Shown here: piece by piece, positions 3,888 to 43,600 of the stretch
Position numbering within the stretch: position 1 is the first letter of the stretch
Layout: each line of letters starts with the position of its first letter
Virus record (IMG/VR): IMGVR_UViG_3300042882_000890
Coordinates: 42,605-106,604 of that record
Origin: a virus
Reading direction: 5' to 3' (one strand)
Length of the DNA: 64,000 nucleotides
Made by a program: the position numbers and the translations under genes
Notes under the pieces: model-generated
What the model was told of the DNA's origin: nothing
Database searches by the model: none
What the model saw: the letters and a program-made list of their open reading frames with translations, nothing else

Positions 3888-4961
3888 ATGAAGTTATTAA
3901 GAGACATTCCTACAAGACATTTTGTAGCGATTGACATTGAGACAGTGAGAATTGTCGAGAAGTACGAGGACTTATCCGATGAGTGGAAGTCAGCGTGGGA
4001 GTACAAGAACAAACAGTCCGGAGAGGTGCCTTTCTTTGAGGAGTTGTCAGACAGTTGGGAAAAAACAGCATCTTTGTATGCGGAGTTCAGTAAAGTTTGT
4101 GCTGTCAGCGTGACGTTCTTATCTAAAAGTGAAGACAAATTACTTTGTAAAGAGTTCTTCGGTACGGAAGAGAGTGTACTATTATATCAGTTAGGAGAGT
4201 TTTTAAACCAAATCTCTGGTAGTAGCAAAGATTTCAGATTGGTAGGACATGCCGCTAAGTACTTTGATTACCCTTTCTTATGTAAAAGGTATATCATCAA
4301 CAGTCTAGTAATACCGACATTGCTAGATACAGCCCACTTAAAACCTTGGGAAAGCAGAAACCTTTGTACCAATGCAGACATTTGGAAAATGGGTGGTACG
4401 GGTGCCGGTAGTTCTTTACAAGCGTTGTGTACTTCCTTGGCAATCCCAATCAGTAAGGTTGATTTAGTTGGAGATGAGGTTGGTAATGCGTATTACAGAG
4501 GAGAGGTAGAGAGAATTGCTCACTATTGTTCACTTGACACTATTGCTACGTTCAACGTAATTCGTAGAATTAAAGCAGAGAGAATCTTTCAGTTTGATGA
4601 AGTATCTTACCTAGACAGAAAAGAAAAGTCTAATGTAGCCAAACCGGTTGCTAAAAAAGAAGCTGTTGCTAAAAAGACCGCTACTAAAAAAGAGGTTGCT
4701 GAGAAAAGAGAGCCGGAAGATGTGTTGTTTGAGAAGTTACCTATACTTCACAGAATCTTAAATGCCACGGAGATACTTCCGGAAACAAGACAAGAGTTAG
4801 AGGCTTTGTTAAAGAAGAAAAAGATGACTAAGAAAGACCGAGTTATCGTGGAAGACATATTAGTTAATCTGTATGTTAACAGCGAGATGTTTAAGTCTGA
4901 CAAGCCGGAAGTAAAAGAGAGTAAAAAAGCCGAGATTAAAGAAATTTTAGATAGTATATAA
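3888..4961 (+). CDS. DEDDy 3'-5' exonuclease, PolB-exonuclease-related family
   Basis: ExoI DIET, ExoII GH...FDYPFL, KPWE, ExoIII YCSLD, and a Lys/Ala-rich linker to a C-terminal helical domain. Confidence 0.85.
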   Translation: MKLLRDIPTRHFVAIDIETVRIVEKYEDLSDEWKSAWEYKNKQSGEVPFFEELSDSWEKTASLYAEFSKVCAVSVTFLSKSEDKLLCKEFFGTEESVLLYQLGEFLNQISGSSKDFRLVGHAAKYFDYPFLCKRYIINSLVIPTLLDTAHLKPWESRNLCTNADIWKMGGTGAGSSLQALCTSLAIPISKVDLVGDEVGNAYYRGEVERIAHYCSLDTIATFNVIRRIKAERIFQFDEVSYLDRKEKSNVAKPVAKKEAVAKKTATKKEVAEKREPEDVLFEKLPILHRILNATEILPETRQELEALLKKKKMTKKDRVIVEDILVNLYVNSEMFKSDKPEVKESKKAEIKEILDSI

Positions 4962-6553: not shown

Positions 6554-6612
6554 TATTTAAGAGTCGAGGCTCAATCCTTTGATTTGAGCACGCTACCTCG
6601 GACTTTGACAAG

Positions 6613-6635
6613 TGCCCCCACACGGGGGATTTTTT
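6613..6635 (+). terminator. intrinsic terminator
   Basis: CCCCC-acac-GGGGG followed by a T6 tract. Confidence 0.6.
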
Positions 6636-6645
6636 AAAGAATGTT

Positions 6646-6755
6646 TTGGGTATGTTGAATGGTAAACAAGCACTGTGACCAGTGTGGCATAGAGTTGAGA
6701 GTCCGGATGTCAAAACTCTTATAAGTCCTTGGGGGTTCGAGTCCCTCTACCTAAT
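6646..6755 (+). ncRNA. tRNA-like RNA with 4-nt anticodon loop and 46-nt variable region
   Basis: Acceptor TTGGGTA/TACCTAA, D arm TTG-AATGGTAAA-CAA, stem CACTG-TGAC-CAGTG, T arm GGGGG-TTCGAGT-CCCTC. Confidence 0.65.
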
Positions 6756-6768
6756 CAAAATTATAGAT

Positions 6769-7134
6769 ATGGAAATAGTAGAAAGCGTAGTAAAAAGAGC
6801 TAATAGTTATTTAAGAGATACAGAAGACTGTATAGAATACCCCATACTAAATAAAGATGGCTATGGAGAAATGCAAACTTATTTATTAGGTAAGAAAAAG
6901 CATTATTTGATGCACAGAGTATCTTTCCAAATATTTAGCGGTATAGATATAAGTTCAGATAATATTATTTGTCATAAGTGTGATAACCCTAGTTGTATAA
7001 ACCCTAGACATTTAGTTTTAGGCACTCATTTAGAAAATGTAAAAGATAGGGTTATAAAAAACAGAAGTGCTAAAGGTAAAAATAATGGTAGGTATAAACA
7101 TGGTACCTATGTAAAAAATAACCCAAATGGGTAA
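6769..7134 (+). CDS. free-standing HNH homing endonuclease
   Basis: HRVSF...ICHKCDNPSCINPRHL..GTHLENVKD. Start moved to ATG6769 because the longer ORF overlaps the tRNA-like element. Confidence 0.9.
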   Translation: MEIVESVVKRANSYLRDTEDCIEYPILNKDGYGEMQTYLLGKKKHYLMHRVSFQIFSGIDISSDNIICHKCDNPSCINPRHLVLGTHLENVKDRVIKNRSAKGKNNGRYKHGTYVKNNPNG

Positions 7135-7140
7135 CAGAAA

Positions 7141-7473
7141 AGTAGTTTGTTGATATATTATTGAAGTTGACCAACACCCGAGTTCGACTCTCGGCATCTC
7201 CACTAATCACTTGGTATTAAGGTGGTTACAGTTTCCTTGAACTATAAACAAGGTGGTGGAGTCACTGAGCAATCAGTTGACCTAAAGGGGCTTTTGGAAG
7301 ATTGTGCCACTTTATAAAAAACAATCTATATAAGGGGATGACTGGTTTTGATTGGCAATAAGTAGGTAGTAAGGAGAATGTACTTTAAACACAAACGGAG
7401 ACGTTTACCAACTTGGTGGTGTTCAGCTTAGAGCTGTAGCATAACCACGCCTGAGGAGAGCGAAATCTCCTCA
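7141..7473 (+). ncRNA. ssrA: circularly permuted tmRNA
   Basis: The acceptor piece (T arm CCGAG-TTCGACT-CTCGG, CATCTCC-A 7195-7202) lies UPSTREAM of the coding piece (GGGGATGACTGGTTTTGA at 7334). G3.U70 Ala identity pair. Tag frame 7397-7444 reads GDVYQLGGVQLRAVA*. Confidence 0.88.
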
Positions 7474-7476
7474 AAT

Positions 7477-7550
7477 GCCCCCATAGCTCAGTTGGTCAGA
7501 GCAACTGACTCATAATCAGTAGGTCACAGGTTCAAGCCCTGTTGGGGGCA
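7477..7550 (+). tRNA. tRNA-CAU, most likely Ile2 (lysidine type), otherwise elongator Met
   Basis: Full cloverleaf, loop CTCATAA, C4-G69/C5-G68 and discriminator A. CCA is not encoded. Confidence 0.9.
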
Positions 7551-7569
7551 CAAACTAAAAACAAATAAT

Positions 7570-7851
7570 ATGATAAAAATTAATGAAAAGTACTCGATAA
7601 ACACATCGGGAGAAGGTTGCTCTTTAGAAGCCAAAGAGATGAAACAAAAAGATGAAGTTATTGACAAAGTAAAAACAGGAAAAAAAGTGGATTTCTTATC
7701 TAAGGAAGTTTATTACTACAGTACTGTTGAACAATGTCTTAACAAAATCTTATCTTTAGAGCTAGAAGACTCTGAGGATATTAAAGGAGTTTTAGCAAAA
7801 ATAGAAGAGGTTCGAGTTTTAATAAAAGGTTTAACTAATTTGCGAAAGTAA
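7570..7851 (+). CDS. hypothetical protein
   Basis: ORF track. Confidence 0.6.
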   Translation: MIKINEKYSINTSGEGCSLEAKEMKQKDEVIDKVKTGKKVDFLSKEVYYYSTVEQCLNKILSLELEDSEDIKGVLAKIEEVRVLIKGLTNLRK

Positions 7852-7870
7852 TTTTATTTTATTACCTTTG
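7839..7870 (+). promoter_or_regulatory. Bacteroidota primary-sigma promoter (nrdB)
   Basis: TTTG-N20-TACCTTTG. Confidence 0.75.
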
Positions 7871-7882
7871 CACTTAACATAG

Positions 7883-7916
7883 AGTATCTCTTTTAATTAG
7901 GGGATACTTTTTTTTA
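7883..7916 (+). terminator. intrinsic terminator-like hairpin in the nrdB leader
   Basis: AGTATCTCT...AGGGGATACT followed by a long T tract. Confidence 0.65.
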
Positions 7917-7940
7917 CCTTTAATAATTAAAAAATAAACC

Positions 7941-8918
7941 ATGAGCATCTTCGTAGAAAGAAAAAATTACAAGCCATTCGAGTATAATGGCATTACAGAC
8001 CCACTAATCAATGCAATGTGGGCGAGTCATTGGACTCACAACGAATTTAACTTCTTGAATGATATTCAAGACTATAAAACAAAACTAACAGTTGAAGAAC
8101 AAGGGGTAATAAAAAGAGCCATTTTGTTGACCTCGCAAGTAGAGGTTGCTGTAAAATCTTATTGGTCTAATATAGGAAAGTTACTTCCTAAACCGGAGAT
8201 AGCAGACATGGGTGCTGTTTTTGGTGGAGTTGAAGTTATTCACTCAAAAGCTTACGCAGAGATTTTATCTAAGCTAGGGTTAGAAGACCAGTTTAATGAT
8301 ATTTTTAACGAGCCGGTTGTTGTCGGTAGAGTTAACTACTTGTCAAAGTATATCAACAAGATTTATAAAAACGACCACAAGAACATTTGTTACTCTTTGG
8401 TTCTTTTTACATTGTTTACTGAGAACACAGCACTATTCTCTCAGTTTTACACTATCCTAGGTTTTAACAGATTTAGAGGTGTTTTGAAAGATGTTGCAAA
8501 TGTTGTTCAATACACATCAAAAGAGGAAAATTTACATGCTGAGGGGGGAATTGCTTTACTTAACCAAATCAGAGCAGAGCACCCAGAATTATTTGATTCG
8601 GAGTTTACTCAAAAAATCCAAGAAGAGGTACAAGAGGCTTTCATAGCTGAGTCGGACTTGATTGATTGGATTTTGGAAGGGTATCAGAATGAGTTTTTGT
8701 CTCCGGAAATATTGAAAGGGTACATCAAGATTAGATTAAATGATTCTTTGGTAAAAATTGGAATGGAGCCGGCATTTGAGATTGACTCAGAAATAAGAGA
8801 AAAGACACTATGGATGGAAGAAGAGGTTTACGCAAGTGCCTTGACTGACTTCTTTCACAAAAAGCCTATTGACTACTCTAAAAAAATGAAAGTATATAAC
8901 GAAGAAGGATTGTTTTAA
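7941..8918 (+). CDS. nrdB: ribonucleotide reductase class I beta subunit
   Basis: W..HW...E, EVIHSKAY, ENTALFSQF, KEENLH and C-terminal DFF....DY. Confidence 0.95.
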   Translation: MSIFVERKNYKPFEYNGITDPLINAMWASHWTHNEFNFLNDIQDYKTKLTVEEQGVIKRAILLTSQVEVAVKSYWSNIGKLLPKPEIADMGAVFGGVEVIHSKAYAEILSKLGLEDQFNDIFNEPVVVGRVNYLSKYINKIYKNDHKNICYSLVLFTLFTENTALFSQFYTILGFNRFRGVLKDVANVVQYTSKEENLHAEGGIALLNQIRAEHPELFDSEFTQKIQEEVQEAFIAESDLIDWILEGYQNEFLSPEILKGYIKIRLNDSLVKIGMEPAFEIDSEIREKTLWMEEEVYASALTDFFHKKPIDYSKKMKVYNEEGLF

Positions 8919-8919
8919 T

Positions 8920-10566
8920 ATGAAAAATTATTATTGGTTAAATGAAGATTCTAGGAAATTCCTAGCAAAAGATTATTTACTTCCGGAAGCTACACCGGAA
9001 GCACGTGTTAGAGAGATTGCAGAAACAGCCGAAAAGATTCTAGGTATACAAGGTTTTGCAGACAAATTTGAAGGGTATATGGCTAGAGGATTTTTCTCTT
9101 TGGCTACACCGGTTTGGATGAACTTTGGGTTAGACCGTGGTTTACCTATTTCTTGTTATGGAATTGACATACAAGACGACACCATGGATATTTTAAGAGC
9201 AAATGCTGAGATTGGTGCCCTCACAAAAATGGGCGGTGGTACTGCCGGTTACTTCGGAAAGTTGAGAGGGCGAGGGGCTCCTATCAGAAACAACGGAGTT
9301 TCTAACGGGGCTGTTAGCTTCTTGTTACCATTCCAAACTACAACAGATGTTATCACCCAAGGACAAGCACGTAGAGGTTACTTTGCGGCTTACTACCCAG
9401 TAGATGGTGCTGACATCGAGGAGTTCTTACACTGTCGAGAAGAGGGGCACATTATCCAAAATATAGCATTGGGGGTTTGTATCTCAGATGAGTGGATGGA
9501 AGCGGTGGAAGCCGGAGATAAAGATAAGAGAAAGATTTTAGCTAAGATACACCAAAAGAGAGCTGAGTCAGGTTTTCCTTATATCTTCTTTACTGGGAAT
9601 GTTAACAAAAACAAGCCTAAGGTTTACAAAGACAAAGATATGCAGATTAACCACTCTCAGATGTGTACCGAGATTTTAGAATACACAGACGAGTTCAAGT
9701 CTTTTGTTTGCTGTTTATCTTCTATAAACCTTTTACATTGGGACGAGATTGTAGAGACAGATGCTGTTGAAACTTTGGCTTACTTCTTAGATGCAGTTTA
9801 CACAGAGTTTATTCAAAAAGCCGAGGGTATTCCTTTTATGGAAAAAGCTTTATTGTTTGCAAAAGAACACAGAAGTATCGGTATTGGAGTTCTAGGTTGG
9901 CATAGTTTATTGCAGTCTAAGTTAATTCCTTTTGAGGGGTTAGAGTCTAAGATGTTGAACGCTGAGATATTCAGAACAATCAACGATAAGAGTTTGATTG
10001 CTAGTATGCAGTTGGCTACAATGTTTGGAGAGCCAAAAATGTTAGAGGGTTATGGGCAAAGATTTACCACTAGGTTAGCTATTGCCCCTACAACTAGTTC
10101 TTCTTTCATTCTTGGACAAGTTAGTCCGGGAATCGAGCCACTAGAATCTAATTATTTTATCAAGGATTTAGCTAAAGGTAAGTTCGTTTACAGAAACCCT
10201 TACTTGAAACAGCTACTAAAAGATAAAGGGCAGGACGTTCCGGAAGTATGGAATACAATCCTGTTAAAAGGTGGCTCAGTACAGCACCTAGATTTCTTAG
10301 ACGAAAGAGAAAAAGGAGTCTTCAAAACATTTGGTGAGATTAGCCAATTAGAGATTGTACAACAAGCTGCTCAAAGACAAAAATTTATTGACCAAGGGCA
10401 ATCATTAAATTTGATGATTCATCCGGATGTACCATTAAAAGAAGTTAACGCTTTGTTTTATGAGGCATGGAAACTTGGTATCAAAACCTTATATTATCAA
10501 CGTAGTGTGAATATGGCTCAGCAAGTCGGAAGAGAACTTATGAACTGTAGTTCGTGTGAAGGGTAA
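8920..10566 (+). CDS. nrdA: ribonucleotide reductase class I alpha subunit
   Basis: LPISC, SQMCTEI, VCCLSS, AIAPTTSSS, IDQGQSLN, KTLYY and C-terminal CSSC. No ATP cone. Confidence 0.95.
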   Translation: MKNYYWLNEDSRKFLAKDYLLPEATPEARVREIAETAEKILGIQGFADKFEGYMARGFFSLATPVWMNFGLDRGLPISCYGIDIQDDTMDILRANAEIGALTKMGGGTAGYFGKLRGRGAPIRNNGVSNGAVSFLLPFQTTTDVITQGQARRGYFAAYYPVDGADIEEFLHCREEGHIIQNIALGVCISDEWMEAVEAGDKDKRKILAKIHQKRAESGFPYIFFTGNVNKNKPKVYKDKDMQINHSQMCTEILEYTDEFKSFVCCLSSINLLHWDEIVETDAVETLAYFLDAVYTEFIQKAEGIPFMEKALLFAKEHRSIGIGVLGWHSLLQSKLIPFEGLESKMLNAEIFRTINDKSLIASMQLATMFGEPKMLEGYGQRFTTRLAIAPTTSSSFILGQVSPGIEPLESNYFIKDLAKGKFVYRNPYLKQLLKDKGQDVPEVWNTILLKGGSVQHLDFLDEREKGVFKTFGEISQLEIVQQAAQRQKFIDQGQSLNLMIHPDVPLKEVNALFYEAWKLGIKTLYYQRSVNMAQQVGRELMNCSSCEG

Positions 10567-10591
10567 TTAGTTGTTATGTTATTTTTAGTTT

Positions 10592-10620
10592 AAGCCCTCC
10601 AGAAATGGGGGGTTTTTGTT
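10592..10620 (+). terminator. intrinsic terminator after nrdA
   Basis: AAGCCCTCCA-GAAA-TGGGGGGTTT followed by a T tract. Confidence 0.8.
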
Positions 10621-10644
10621 TAATTAAAAAAAGTTTAACTTTTA

Positions 10645-40634: not shown

Positions 40635-43600
40635 TTATTCGCAAGGTTTATTTTTTTCGCTGTCTACATCTTTTTGAGATTGGTTGTTTAGCTCATACAG
40701 TCTGTCCAATGCTTCTGTAACTCTATCGCTTTGTACAAATTGAGCTTCCTGTAAAGATATCTTCTTTCTTAAAAATATTTTAGTAGCTATCTCTAGAGCT
40801 TTCTCTTCACTAACATCCCCTTCTCTCTCAGCTTCTGTATACCAATCTTTTACTCCCTCTTTTAATTCATCTAACTCTATGATAGGTTTTGGTGAAGAGA
40901 ACATGTTGTTAGCCATATCTAAGCCTATACTAGCCTCATTGGCTAAGTCAGTAGTTGTGTGCTCAGGTAACATCCAATCTTTAACACTACTTACGTTTGT
41001 AACACTGGCTAAGTCATCTATAGCTTTTAGTAAATCTTTTGTAGGGAATCCTTCAGAATCTAATATGTTTTGGTTACTTTCGTCCATATAAAACAAATTG
41101 TAAGCTGCTGGAGAAAAACCGTTGTCTGCTAATAGCTGATTAAGTTTTATAGCTGCTTCAGCTCTATTTTTAGAGTCTGTGAATATGTCAGTAACTTGGT
41201 CAGATAAGTTAGCTTCGGATTCTTTTAAAGCTACTGGGAAAGCTATCAAGTACTTGCCTTGTTTAACTACAACCACTGGTTGGTTTGTTCTTCCTAGTAA
41301 TCCTTTTATAAAATCTTCTCTTACCCCTTTTGTATTGTTTTTTAGAACTAGTTTACCGTCTTCAATATAACCGTAGTCTATAACTTGCTCCGGTATAATG
41401 TCAAACATTTTTATAGCTCCATTTTCAAAAGTAAAATTAGGAGAGCCTAAAAATATATGTTTTATGTAACTTGTTTTTGATAGTGAAGCTACACCCATAA
41501 TACCAGACTCCATTCTTGATTTGAATATCTCAAAAGCCTCTCTTCTCAAGTCTAAGTATCCTGGGATACCTGCTATATCGTAAGCTGCTTTTAAATCCCC
41601 AAGTTTTCTACCGTCTGTATCAAGTACGTTTACTTTTATGTTTTCAAAAAGTTCTTTTTCTAGTTCCTCAACATTCCTTCCTTCGTCTAAGCCCTCTTCG
41701 TATTTTTGGATAAGTTTTAGATTATACTCATCATTCATATCCAGGCTGAAAGTAACTTCTGCTGATTCCCCCGGCTCCATATTATAGATTTCTCTAGGAG
41801 AATATTCAGATGCGTTTCTGTAGTCTGTTTTTAGCTTCTCTCCGGTCTCCAAATCATAAACAGGAGAATACCCCCCATTTCTATTTAGAGTGCCTTCTAC
41901 ATGCTTCATATTAGCTTCAGCCATAACTTTAGGGAAGTCTTCGCTTTTCAAAGATATAGCACCACTTCTTTCTACTGTTAAATTAACTTTGCTTCCATCT
42001 GCAAGTGTAACTATAAAGTTAGCTCCAGGTAAAGAGTTTTCCTCTACTTCTTCTGGTGTAATTACTTTAGCTGAACCTTTTACTTCTACATTTTTACCTT
42101 TTTCCCATTTAGTTTGTACATAACCTATATCACCGGTTATTCCCATTCTTTCTAAAAGTCCAGGAAGAGTTAAATGTGATATTTGTACAGAGTTTCCTTT
42201 CTTTTTAACAAATACATTTTCGTATACTTGTATGTACTGTTCGTTTCTAATACCGCTGGCTCCGTCTACTTCTAGAGGCTCGTTATCAGATAAGTTTATT
42301 AAGTCTGAGTCTGTAAGTTTTTCTCTGATTATCGGCTCTACTGTTTGTCTAACTGCTACAGCTTGTGTTATCATTTGTTGTAGAGATACTCCGTTTTCGT
42401 TTTGGTATCCTTCTATCAACTGCCAGTTAGCCATCTTTTGGTTTAGCTCTTGTAATCTAGTTATTTCAGCCTTTGTTAAAGACGGTCTTGTTGTAGGAGA
42501 AAATCTCTTAGAGTCGTAAGGGTTTTTAAAAGCCACTAACTCCGTATCAATACGTGGGTCATCAATAGCTTTAGCCGCTAAGTCATAAAACTCTTCTATC
42601 TCGGCTTCAGTAGGAACTAAGTCTAAGATATTTTCACCAAAATTCTCTAGTAAGTATGGACTGTTTTTTACCATTTCAACTATAGAGTCTATCAGTGACT
42701 TTTTCTCTTGTACCGGCTCTTGCGTTTTGTCTTGATATTTTTTATCAATAGCATCTAACTTAGCTTGTTTTTCTTTTTCAAGCTTTTTGATTTCCTTGCT
42801 GTTGTCTGCTTTTTGTTGTGTGTTACCTATTTTTGATAACTCTTCATTTAGTAAAGCTAGAGTACTATTAACATGTGCGTAAAACTCATTTGAGTCAGTA
42901 TTTTTACCGGCAGGTTTTGTAGGTAAATTCATTGTGTTATTAAAAGATTCTAAATCTTCTTTAGAATCACTTAAAAAACCTATACCATCTTTTAGTTTAC
43001 CATTACCGTTATCTTCTCTACTTTCGATACCCCCTATCCCTTCGTTAAGTATTTTAGAAAGTTTTTCAAATAGTTGAAAGCCATAACTATTATTTATCTG
43101 CTCTTCTGAACCTTTGTTTATCCATCCAGCTTCTACCCCGATACCAAAAACAGCATACCAATTACCTGCTTTTACACTTTTCTTACCTGCTTGACCAGTA
43201 CTAATGTAAAAAGGTATATTGTATTTACCTATTTTCATCATTACCATTACTCTATCTGAGTAATCAACTACATTGTAATCTTTACCATTGATATTTATTG
43301 AAGAGAGTAAATTATTATCTTTTAACCAATTTAACTTTTCTTCTAATGTGTTTAGTTTATTTAACTCTGCTACTATGTCTGCTACTGGAGTAGATATTAT
43401 ATTAACACCTTCTTGACCTTTTAACAACGGTGTTATTAGCTTGTCATATCTATCATAGATTTCTTCAAACTTAGCTATATCTTCTGGATTAGTTAATTTG
43501 TTTTTGTCTACTTTACCATCTGTCAGGGCATTTTTTGCCTCCGGTATAGCTGCAAGTAATTCTTTTTGTTCTTGCTCTCTTAACTTAGCTATTTGTTTAG

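Follow-up and report, generated by a model that had tools for sequence, protein, structure and literature searches.

In permuted genes for transfer-messenger RNA (tmRNA), the segment between the 3' end of the acceptor piece and the 5' end of the coding piece, termed the intervening segment (IVS), is defined as absent from the mature tmRNA (PMC11915505). The cargo of such a segment was found to be a tRNA-Ala gene in one metagenome-assembled genome (MAG) and a repetitive element in another, and the nested tRNA-Ala was presented as unique to one nominally archaeal MAG (PMC11915505). The wcaG motif (RF01761) is a riboswitch candidate that was discovered in marine metagenomes and T4-like cyanophages and proposed to be cis-regulatory (Weinberg et al., 2010; PMC2864571). 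Here, both systems are compared with a permuted tmRNA gene in a 64,000-nucleotide stretch of viral DNA (the window), which spans positions 42,605 to 106,604 of the IMG/VR virus record IMGVR_UViG_3300042882_000890, a 106.6-kb record estimated to be 70% complete. DNA near-identical to the window is present in lake and freshwater metagenomes. The IVS of this gene (7203..7333; all window features named below lie on the plus strand) is made up of an insertion private to the window phage (7207-7229), a 55-nt module (7230-7284) and a hairpin, H3 (7299-7327). In an initial annotation, this spacer was suspected to be a retained third piece of the tmRNA. On balance, we regard it as a nested, autonomous wcaG-like RNA element that is not part of the tmRNA.

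The conserved core of the intervening segment

The core of the IVS (7230-7263; AGTTTCCTTGAACTATAAACAAGGTGGTGGAGTC) is the best-conserved stretch of the whole gene. This was established in a clade of nine distinct genes, namely those of the window, L020, L021, L022, L050, L060, L062, L072 and L074. Close relatives were found via the gene for the small subunit of ribonucleotide reductase (RNR) 400 nt downstream, a scan for the core block, the tag pattern, and the acceptor-piece pattern in metagenomes; six chance matches of the tag-pattern scan inside open reading frames (ORFs; L064-L068 and L070) were discarded. The relatives that were found without reference to the IVS, through the RNR protein, the acceptor-piece pattern or the tag pattern, all carry the block. 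Mean pairwise identity is 0.99 in the block, where 32 of the 34 columns are invariant, and 0.82 in the 5' extension of the acceptor piece, 0.78-0.80 in the parts of the coding piece, 0.71 in the T-arm with the acceptor strand and 0.50 in the 3' part of the IVS. The spacer is thus far from unconserved, since nothing in the gene is conserved better than its core.

The three hairpins described in the initial annotation are all present in the sequence. H1 (7235-7253) pairs CCTTG (7235-7239) with CAAGG (7249-7253), and the linker UGGUGG separates it from H2 (7257-7284). H2 has a GNRA loop (GCAA), is closed by GG...C(C/U) and has the inner strands GTC-A-CTGA GCAA TCAG-TT-GAC (7261-7281); together with the near-invariant block it constitutes the wcaG-like RNA module (7230..7284). 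H3 (7299..7327) pairs AGATTGT (7299-7305) with ACAATCT (7321-7327) and ends 6 nt before G1, the first nucleotide of the coding piece. H1 and the lower part of H2 fall within the 34-nt block and do not vary in the clade, and the top of H2 varies on one side only, with the loops GCAA, GAAA and TTA. A hairpin corresponding to H3 ends 4-7 nt before G1 in every clade member, with three pairs changed on both sides, and no U-run follows it in any of them. The spacer had also been called long and structured; the hairpins are there, but the folding of the segment does not stand out against shuffled sequences (z = -0.97, with 36 of 200 folding as well). The L074 gene is a mosaic of an IVS 3' half of the window type and a tRNA-like domain of the L021 type.

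Several other candidates within the IVS were examined and rejected. All members could form a pseudoknot between the H1 loop and the U-rich tract that follows H2, and the one possible compensating change (L072) was considered too thin. The pseudoknot between the H3 loop and AAGGTGGT that had been pointed out earlier is good only in the window and L074. A small ORF (LNYKQGGGV...) has neither a conserved frame nor a conserved stop, and its changes are non-synonymous by eye. A degenerate tRNA was discarded, as no tRNA match was obtained at E <= 10, and neither a sigma-70-like promoter nor a terminator was found inside the IVS. Searches for parts of the block found no second occurrence in the window, exact scans for the H2 and H3 of the IVS in viral contigs gave no matches, and the block pattern had no match in 185,579 prokaryote genomes.

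The two tmRNA pieces that enclose the IVS were identified by several means. ARAGORN called a permuted tmRNA in the window with the tag GDVYQLGGVQLRAVA, the tag ORF (7397-7444) ending in the stop codon TAA (7442-7444). The acceptor piece (7141..7202) comprises the 3' strands of P2, the T-arm (7178-7194), the strand CATCTCC (7195-7201) and the discriminator A7202; CCA is not encoded after it, the sequence being CTA instead. The coding piece (7334..~7475) starts with the acceptor 5' strand GGGGATG, which forms a 7-bp acceptor stem with CATCTCC, G3.U70 included, and continues with the 5' strands of P2 and the tag ORF. The IVS boundaries in the initial annotation were exact, with the discriminator at A7202 and G1 at 7334. 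Compensatory changes across the nine genes were found in the T-arm, the acceptor stem, P2b (alignment columns 17-23 with 229-235), P2c (columns 4-9 with 240-245) and the 3' hairpin of the coding piece. Because the tmRNA helices covary, the window gene is a genuine two-piece tmRNA without pseudoknots 2 to 4 (pk2-pk4). The remark that little room is left for these pseudoknots was correct, as the 8-bp 3' hairpin (7452-7473), the last structure before tRNA-Met, is all that lies between the stop codon and the start of tRNA-Met at 7477.

The Rfam model tmRNA_permuted (RF04321) aligns to 7145-7444 with 42.1 bits (E 6e-7); this score is under the cut-off of 47 bits because about 115 nt are inserted in the loop of the model, and the relative L003 scored 53.2 bits. 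Tag reading frames with a hydrophobic, Ala-rich C-terminus and a stop codon, as expected of a permuted tmRNA, are present in the window and in relatives (DNVYQLGGVQLRAVA and DNVYQLGGVQRRFAA), and GGTGG inside the tag forms a local helix with CCAC after the stop (alifold). A blastn search with the tmRNA region against GenBank phages returned only tRNA-Met look-alikes. In L060 (6092-6392, minus strand), L062 (3529-3829, minus strand) and L072 (2679-2981, minus strand), an aberrant T-loop, GGCAGAG or GGCAGAA versus TTCGAxT, is accompanied by the D-loop analogue GAAATAGTATTGA instead of GACTGGTTTTGA, with acceptor stem, tag and IVS module intact. These loops may mean that the elbow co-varies or that the tRNA-like domain is decaying.

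In an exact scan for the tmRNA 5' end, 17 phage loci were recovered. The IVS is 17-18 nt long in the permuted tmRNAs of L004, L011, L012, L014 and L019, and 51 nt long in L003, the T-arm of which is that of the window. In L005 (3674-3748, minus strand), L010 (4786-4860, minus strand) and L013 (4462-4536, plus strand), the IVS holds a complete tRNA-Ala(TGC) gene, and tRNA-Ala nested in an IVS seems to be a recurrent phage arrangement. L018 and L007 have an IVS of about 116-120 nt with unrelated sequence. These IVSs differ widely, and neither the IVS nor the module of the window is present in the other phage permuted tmRNAs that share the same 5' end; a tmRNA of this type therefore needs no such IVS.

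A short wcaG-like module in phages

The Rfam consensus of wcaG reads uuuagUUU[cuugcuu..aagcaag]UGGUGCGGA[uGGGg..cCCCg]CC..UUUC[uugc..gcaa]GUGGCG. The window at 7230-7282, AGUUUCCUUG...CAAGGUGGUGGAGUC...GACC, presents the flanks of the first wcaG hairpin (UUUC/GUGGUG) and a second hairpin closed by G...CC. Judged from its sequence, the module corresponds to the first two hairpins, or the 5' two-thirds, of wcaG. The third wcaG hairpin (UUUC[stem]...[stem]GUGGCG) is absent from the copy in the window, where the flanks of H3 differ; its place is usually taken by a terminator, and by H3 in the IVS. With the Rfam wcaG model (cut-off 42 bits), module copies scored 96.8 and 39.1 bits in L092, the second copy being under the cut-off, and 48.1 bits in L078, and a typical short module, that of L087, scored 25 bits.

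A large set of modules was retrieved from phage DNA. A profile of the IVS gave weak matches in two one-piece phage tmRNAs, L015 (1235-1292) and L008 (8567-8600), and the pattern derived from these matches, TTTCCTT-N7-13-AAGGTGGTGG, listed >120 IMG/VR loci. About 80 loci, among the matches listed, have the module layout. In this layout, UUUCCUU(G/A), an A/U-rich loop and (C/U)AAGG form H1 and are followed by UGGUGG and A(G), a variable H2 closed by GG...(R)CC, an A-rich linker and a GC hairpin with a T-run, the last two of which make an intrinsic terminator in most stand-alone modules. Among the matches listed, 63 of 85 loci have the end of an ORF of ≥50 aa 0-12 nt upstream of the module, and these ORFs belong to 10 unrelated clusters. 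Similarly, the genes downstream of stand-alone modules are heterogeneous and fall into >20 clusters. The fifth pair of H1 in stand-alone copies is G-C (28), G.U (12) or A-U (5), and the H2 hairpin is formed in nearly all copies, with 39 distinct sequences among 40 parsed. The linker between H1 and H2, GGUGGUGGAG, is invariant, and is so also in stand-alone modules without an adjoining tmRNA end.

The window copy belongs to this family. A hidden Markov model (HMM) built from 45 stand-alone modules matches the window at 7230-7285 (E 5.9e-8), and a covariance model (CM), R1, built from stand-alone copies only, matches 7229-7301 with 34.6 bits (E 1.6e-8); neither model matches anything else in the 106.6-kb record. 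Five records of 175-380 kb likewise have one strong match each. The window module differs in context, as it follows the tmRNA acceptor end, instead of starting 0-12 nt after a stop codon, and lacks a terminator U-run; it is a context variant, like those of L096, L008 and L015. A blastn search with a stand-alone module against GenBank phages gave one match, in an uncultured 634-kb record. The phages that carry the module seem to be non-cyanobacterial lake phages.

Canonical wcaG was found in GenBank phages at one place each in 61 Synechococcus phage (cyanophage) records. In S-SCSM2R and S-H38, its start coincides with the stop codon of the preceding gene; in S-RSM4, it lies about 100 nt ahead of tRNA-Gly, and in S-CREM1 it is located inside a tRNA cluster, 47 nt before tRNA-Met. 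In L078, wcaG lies between tRNA-Arg and tRNA-Leu. The S-CREM1 region (L193, record 9745-10643) has wcaG, manA and abiF RNAs interleaved with tRNA genes, and the manA RNA abuts tRNA-Leu and tRNA-Asn without a spacer, as if RNase P and RNase Z cut it out. Units of the wcaG and wcaG-like types occur in tandem in L092 (3322-3516, minus strand), upstream of a GDP-mannose 4,6-dehydratase-like gene, and in L078 (7380-7569, plus strand), where a variant first hairpin has CCAAG/CUUGG versus CCUUG/CAAGG, a double compensatory change.

Physical links of the module with tmRNA genes occur beyond the clade. In the one-piece tmRNAs of L008 and L015, module copies lie between the tag and the T-arm, that is, in the pseudoknot region, with CM scores of 38.7 and 39.4 bits and HMM E-values of 2.8e-7 and 4.9e-9. 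Their position would allow for a likeness of the spacer to the pk2-pk4 region of tmRNA, although most copies lie outside tmRNA genes. These internal copies hint at a link between the module and tmRNA function. L096 carries an intron-type one-piece tmRNA (GGGGGCG with CGCCTCC) with the module 11 nt past its 3' end, followed by a terminator, and a weaker UUUC...GUGG unit was noticed by eye in the body of this tmRNA. In L105/L164 and L140, the module is located 110-190 nt behind a tmRNA gene. Group I introns were observed in the T-loop of tmRNA genes that carry or adjoin the module (L015, 1350-1629; L096, 7801-8048; L140, 2297-2596, minus strand).

Other features of module loci were recorded in passing. 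The first ORFs past module and terminator in L090, L093, L098, L103, L105, L114 and L140 encode otherwise unrelated proteins that share an N-terminal motif (e.g. MNIKRILLxESEKKxILSLH). This motif may direct targeting or cleavage, as a signal common to them, or may belong to a mobile cassette. In L133, L115, L113 and other module loci, the T-run of the terminator plus a G reads TTTG, with TAnnTTTG about 19 nt on and an ATG 4-5 nt further (by eye). This arrangement looks like a Bacteroidota-type promoter for leaderless genes that is fused to the terminator. Also, a GOLLD RNA (322.7 bits) is present in L153 at 3943-4352, 1.3 kb upstream of a stand-alone module the H1 loop of which is closest to the IVS version.

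The IVS is represented in RNA libraries. A metatranscriptome contig of run X18 covers 7215-7400 (186 nt, 1 mismatch, depth 9), and one of run X20, from a different study, covers 7217-7373 (depth 3.8). Apart from tRNA cross-matches, each is the single contig of its run on 6600-8000; run X17 looks like X18 filed twice. In X18 and X20 no cover was found over the HNH endonuclease gene upstream of the tmRNA, ORF 7570-7851 or the start of the RNR gene. As these flanking protein genes have no cover, DNA carry-over is unlikely, and the RNA that includes the IVS is relatively abundant. Neither the acceptor piece nor the tag region is covered in the RNA runs, which is evidence neither way.

Proposed release of the module and rival readings

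An origin of the nested element can be proposed from the layout of L096. The ancestor would have been a one-piece phage tmRNA gene followed by module and terminator, as in L096 today. Tandem duplication of the tmRNA-module-terminator unit and loss of the outer halves would have left the order acceptor half, module, ex-terminator and coding half. The 3' trailer would thereby have been trapped between the halves, and the terminator would have lost its U-run, so that transcription reads through. H3 lies at the right distance from the module for the terminator position, and the U-run alone is missing. In the present gene, the precursor would be cut or trimmed after A7202, with CCA added, and RNase P would cut before G7334. 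Both tRNA-type events would free the two tmRNA pieces and release an RNA of about 130 nt with the module, which would act as in other phages, independently of trans-translation. Being an orphan RNA of the wcaG type, the module would most probably have a ligand or a protein as its binding partner.

We favour an RNA that acts independently once tRNA-type processing has released it, because this is the only reading that fits all contexts seen: behind unrelated protein genes, before terminators, among tRNA genes, behind tmRNAs and inside the IVS. It corresponds to the fallback offered in the initial annotation, an independent small RNA, which turned out to be the best fit, as the core belongs to a wcaG-like family that is found mostly outside tmRNA genes. 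The ribozyme mentioned there as an alternative gained nothing from the Rfam ribozyme families, none of which matched in 6900-7700 at E <= 10.

A number of observations weigh against an autonomous wcaG-like element. The Rfam wcaG model has no match in 6900-7700 of the window at E <= 10. H1 and the lower part of H2 are invariant in the clade, so their folding is unproven by covariation there. That TTTCCTT and AAGGTGGTGG do not vary among the stand-alone copies is in part a consequence of the pattern used to find them, which does not apply to the invariance seen in the tmRNA clade. The RNA contigs span the expected RNase P site (7333/7334) and may derive from a precursor or from an RNA that stays uncut, no excised IVS being seen among them, and since contigs give neither RNA ends nor levels, they do not distinguish precursor from product. 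The modules of L008 and L015, which lie inside a one-piece tmRNA, could not be released by the same route. Finally, the module is, like wcaG, an orphan RNA.

A cis-acting regulator is an unlikely alternative, though one with several points in its favour. A wcaG-type riboswitch, an attenuator or an RNA-polymerase-modifying element would then act on its own transcript and, together with H3, control read-through or processing into the coding piece, tRNA-Met and the RNR genes, thereby setting the ratio of coding to acceptor piece. A cis-regulatory role is what was proposed for the riboswitch candidate wcaG (PMC2864571). Stand-alone modules start at the upstream stop codon and sit a few nucleotides before an intrinsic terminator. 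This layout can be likened to that of phage lambda, where nutR lies between cro and tR1. Similarly, H3 occupies the terminator position, and the RNA contigs continue from the IVS into the coding piece. However, H3 is without a U-run in all clade members, so no obvious expression platform is present. The heterogeneity of the downstream genes also speaks against a regulator, several of these genes appear by eye to have their own promoter-like TTTG...TAnnTTTG box, and the copies before tRNA genes or within tmRNA bodies have no obvious target.

A functional connection of the module family with trans-translation is given a small chance, and it is kept open because the family is repeatedly linked to tmRNA genes, including the copies inside tmRNA bodies. 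It is quite unlikely that wcaG-type RNAs are tied to trans-translation as a portable pseudoknot-like domain or partner of tmRNA, located in the tmRNA body (L008, L015), in the IVS, or beside or apart from tmRNA genes. On such a reading, the complementarity of UGGUGGAG and CUCCACCA suggests that the module may act on the 3' end of tmRNA and tRNA-Ala, or else on the rescue machinery.

For the gene in the window, the corresponding proposal would be that the module is a detachable pseudoknot-like tmRNA domain, built into the tmRNA in L008 and L015 and supplied here from the IVS, either attached to the coding piece or non-covalently. The copies in the pseudoknot region of these two tmRNAs, the weaker unit in the L096 tmRNA body, the lack of pk2-pk4 in the tmRNA of the clade, the RNA contigs that join the IVS to the coding piece, and the exact complementarity of UGGUGGAG to CUCCACCA, the 3' end of tmRNA and tRNA-Ala, are all consistent with it. 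Nevertheless, a detachable domain is very unlikely, as no docking helix is conserved or covaries, and the two helices proposed earlier were refuted. The first of these, GTGGTTA (7222-7228) with TAACCAC (7442-7448), a site that includes the tag stop TAA, is complementary as claimed, but GTGGTTA lies in 7207-7229, which is a gap in 8 of 8 relatives, and TAACCAC is better explained by a local helix with GGTGG in the tag (alifold). The second, AACAATCTA (7320-7328) with TAGTTTGTT (7143-7151), does form 8 of 9 pairs, but the 3' strand of H3 (AACAATCT) becomes ACAACTG, ACAGCCG or AACGT in relatives and the acceptor 5' end does not follow these changes; its covariation is with the coding piece (helix P2c). 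Thus, the proposed cross-piece pairings are absent from relatives or do not covary, and the three-piece tmRNA with a re-docking spacer is not supported, since no conserved, covarying pairing links the IVS with either piece.

The concatenation that had been recommended for this model was carried out with ARAGORN, which called a standard tmRNA for coding piece plus IVS plus acceptor piece, for coding plus acceptor piece, and for coding piece plus shuffled IVS plus acceptor piece alike; the test is therefore not discriminating. The sole invariant complementarity between the IVS and a tmRNA piece, GUGGAG (7256-7261) with CUCCAC of the acceptor (7198-7203), is present in 9 of 9 genes and would compete with the acceptor stem, which a domain docked in this way would unzip. 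A 5'-extended acceptor stem is expected to be cut by RNase P, which also counts against a detachable domain. In addition, most family members lie behind unrelated protein genes, and permutation by tandem duplication would put remnants of the pseudoknots at the outer ends of the gene and not in the IVS.

The same complementarity could serve the maturation of the tmRNA, with GUGGAG of the IVS holding CUCCAC of the acceptor until the 5' strand is made, H3 presenting the RNase P site, and the IVS being degraded afterwards. GUGGAG/CUCCAC is invariant in the nine genes, and H3 keeps its distance of 4-7 nt from G1 in every clade member and covaries. This role is nonetheless highly doubtful, because GGUGGUGGAG is equally invariant in stand-alone modules, so that the tmRNA does not explain its conservation, an IVS of 17 nt suffices in other phage permuted tmRNAs, and the window accommodates an additional 23 nt between these strands. 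An element acting at the DNA level or a selfish one, such as a protein-binding or recombination site or a mobile cassette with no RNA role in the IVS, might be suspected from the differing flanks between phages, the occurrence of about one copy per genome and the mosaicism of L074, but is barely credible given that the module is always in the sense orientation of transcription, that H2 and H3 keep their pairing despite sequence change, that the IVS is enriched over flanking genes in RNA libraries, and that its canonical relative RF01761 is an accepted structured RNA.

Surroundings of the gene and comparison with known systems

The HNH endonuclease gene (6770..7134; Pfam HNH_3 match on ORF 6682-7134) separates a tRNA-like element (6646-6755) from the acceptor piece in the window phage only; in relatives, the tRNA-like element directly adjoins the acceptor piece, with no HNH gene between them. 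The 23-nt insertion (7207..7229) holds GTGGTTA and a second copy of AAGGTGGT. Both the HNH gene and this insertion are confined to the window phage and may be the footprint of a homing event. Run X16 includes a contig with the HNH gene, the match of which to the window ends at 7203. The tRNA-like element is conserved upstream of the acceptor piece (window, 6646-6755; L020, 516-600; L021, ~1580-1676) and has a 4-nt 'anticodon loop' (CACTG-TGAC-CAGTG) and a long extra arm; its L020 copy was called an 85-nt tRNA-Met by ARAGORN. The 5' end of the acceptor piece is probably set by 3' processing of this element. On the other side, tRNA-Met(CAT) (7477..7551; ARAGORN; Rfam 76.3 bits) directly follows the coding piece, an arrangement kept in relatives, and its 5' processing would set the 3' end of the coding piece.

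An SmpB gene was not found in the 106.6-kb record, which says little, as the record is about 70% complete. The window contains 53 8-mers within one mismatch of CTCCACCA versus 26.6 expected, and none of 100 shuffles reached 53. These 8-mers lie mostly on the minus strand in the first 40 kb; a codon effect is possible, and no link between them and the module could be made.

The IVS of permuted tmRNA genes has been treated as discarded material. In the gene studied here, no other part is as well conserved, and the segment carries its own structured RNA; a split tmRNA gene could therefore act as a cassette for the processing of a second RNA. The family described here is a large one that Rfam does not detect, consisting of a short form of wcaG in uncultured, apparently freshwater phages. 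The start at stop codons and the tmRNA and tRNA contexts argue against reading wcaG, an orphan for 15 years, as a simple riboswitch of the 5' untranslated region. The layout also gives a concrete picture of how this permuted gene could have originated, with the 3' trailer and terminator of a one-piece gene trapped between the halves. If the connection with trans-translation were true, wcaG would gain a role, and the gene would be in effect a tmRNA with a detachable third domain.

Small stable non-tRNA RNAs also lie within phage tRNA clusters, such as species 1 and 2 of T4 (rnaC/rnaD). Like the arrangement proposed here, they are orphan RNAs co-transcribed with tRNA-like genes and liberated by tRNA-processing enzymes. 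No sequence relation exists, the host gene is here a split tmRNA, and excision of the module is at present inferred. Compared with pk2-pk4 of one-piece tmRNAs, module copies occupy the same region in L008 and L015, whereas the element of the window lies between the acceptor 3' and 5' strands and not between the tag and the P2 3' strand, and no pseudoknot pairing is conserved in its clade.

The IVSs of other permuted tmRNA genes (PMC11915505) occupy the same place as that of the window, flanked by the acceptor 3' end and the coding 5' end. Unlike there, the cargo here is a conserved structured RNA that is not a tRNA, exceeds the tmRNA itself in conservation and has most of its family members outside tmRNA genes. 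In comparison with wcaG (RF01761), the module usually has an A-rich linker and an intrinsic terminator and no third hairpin, and it shows no link to exopolysaccharide or high-light genes. The two share the same core, UUUC-hairpin-GUGGUG followed by a second hairpin closed by G...CC, and both are phage-borne, occur once per genome, start at the stop codon of the upstream gene and are sometimes located among tRNA genes.

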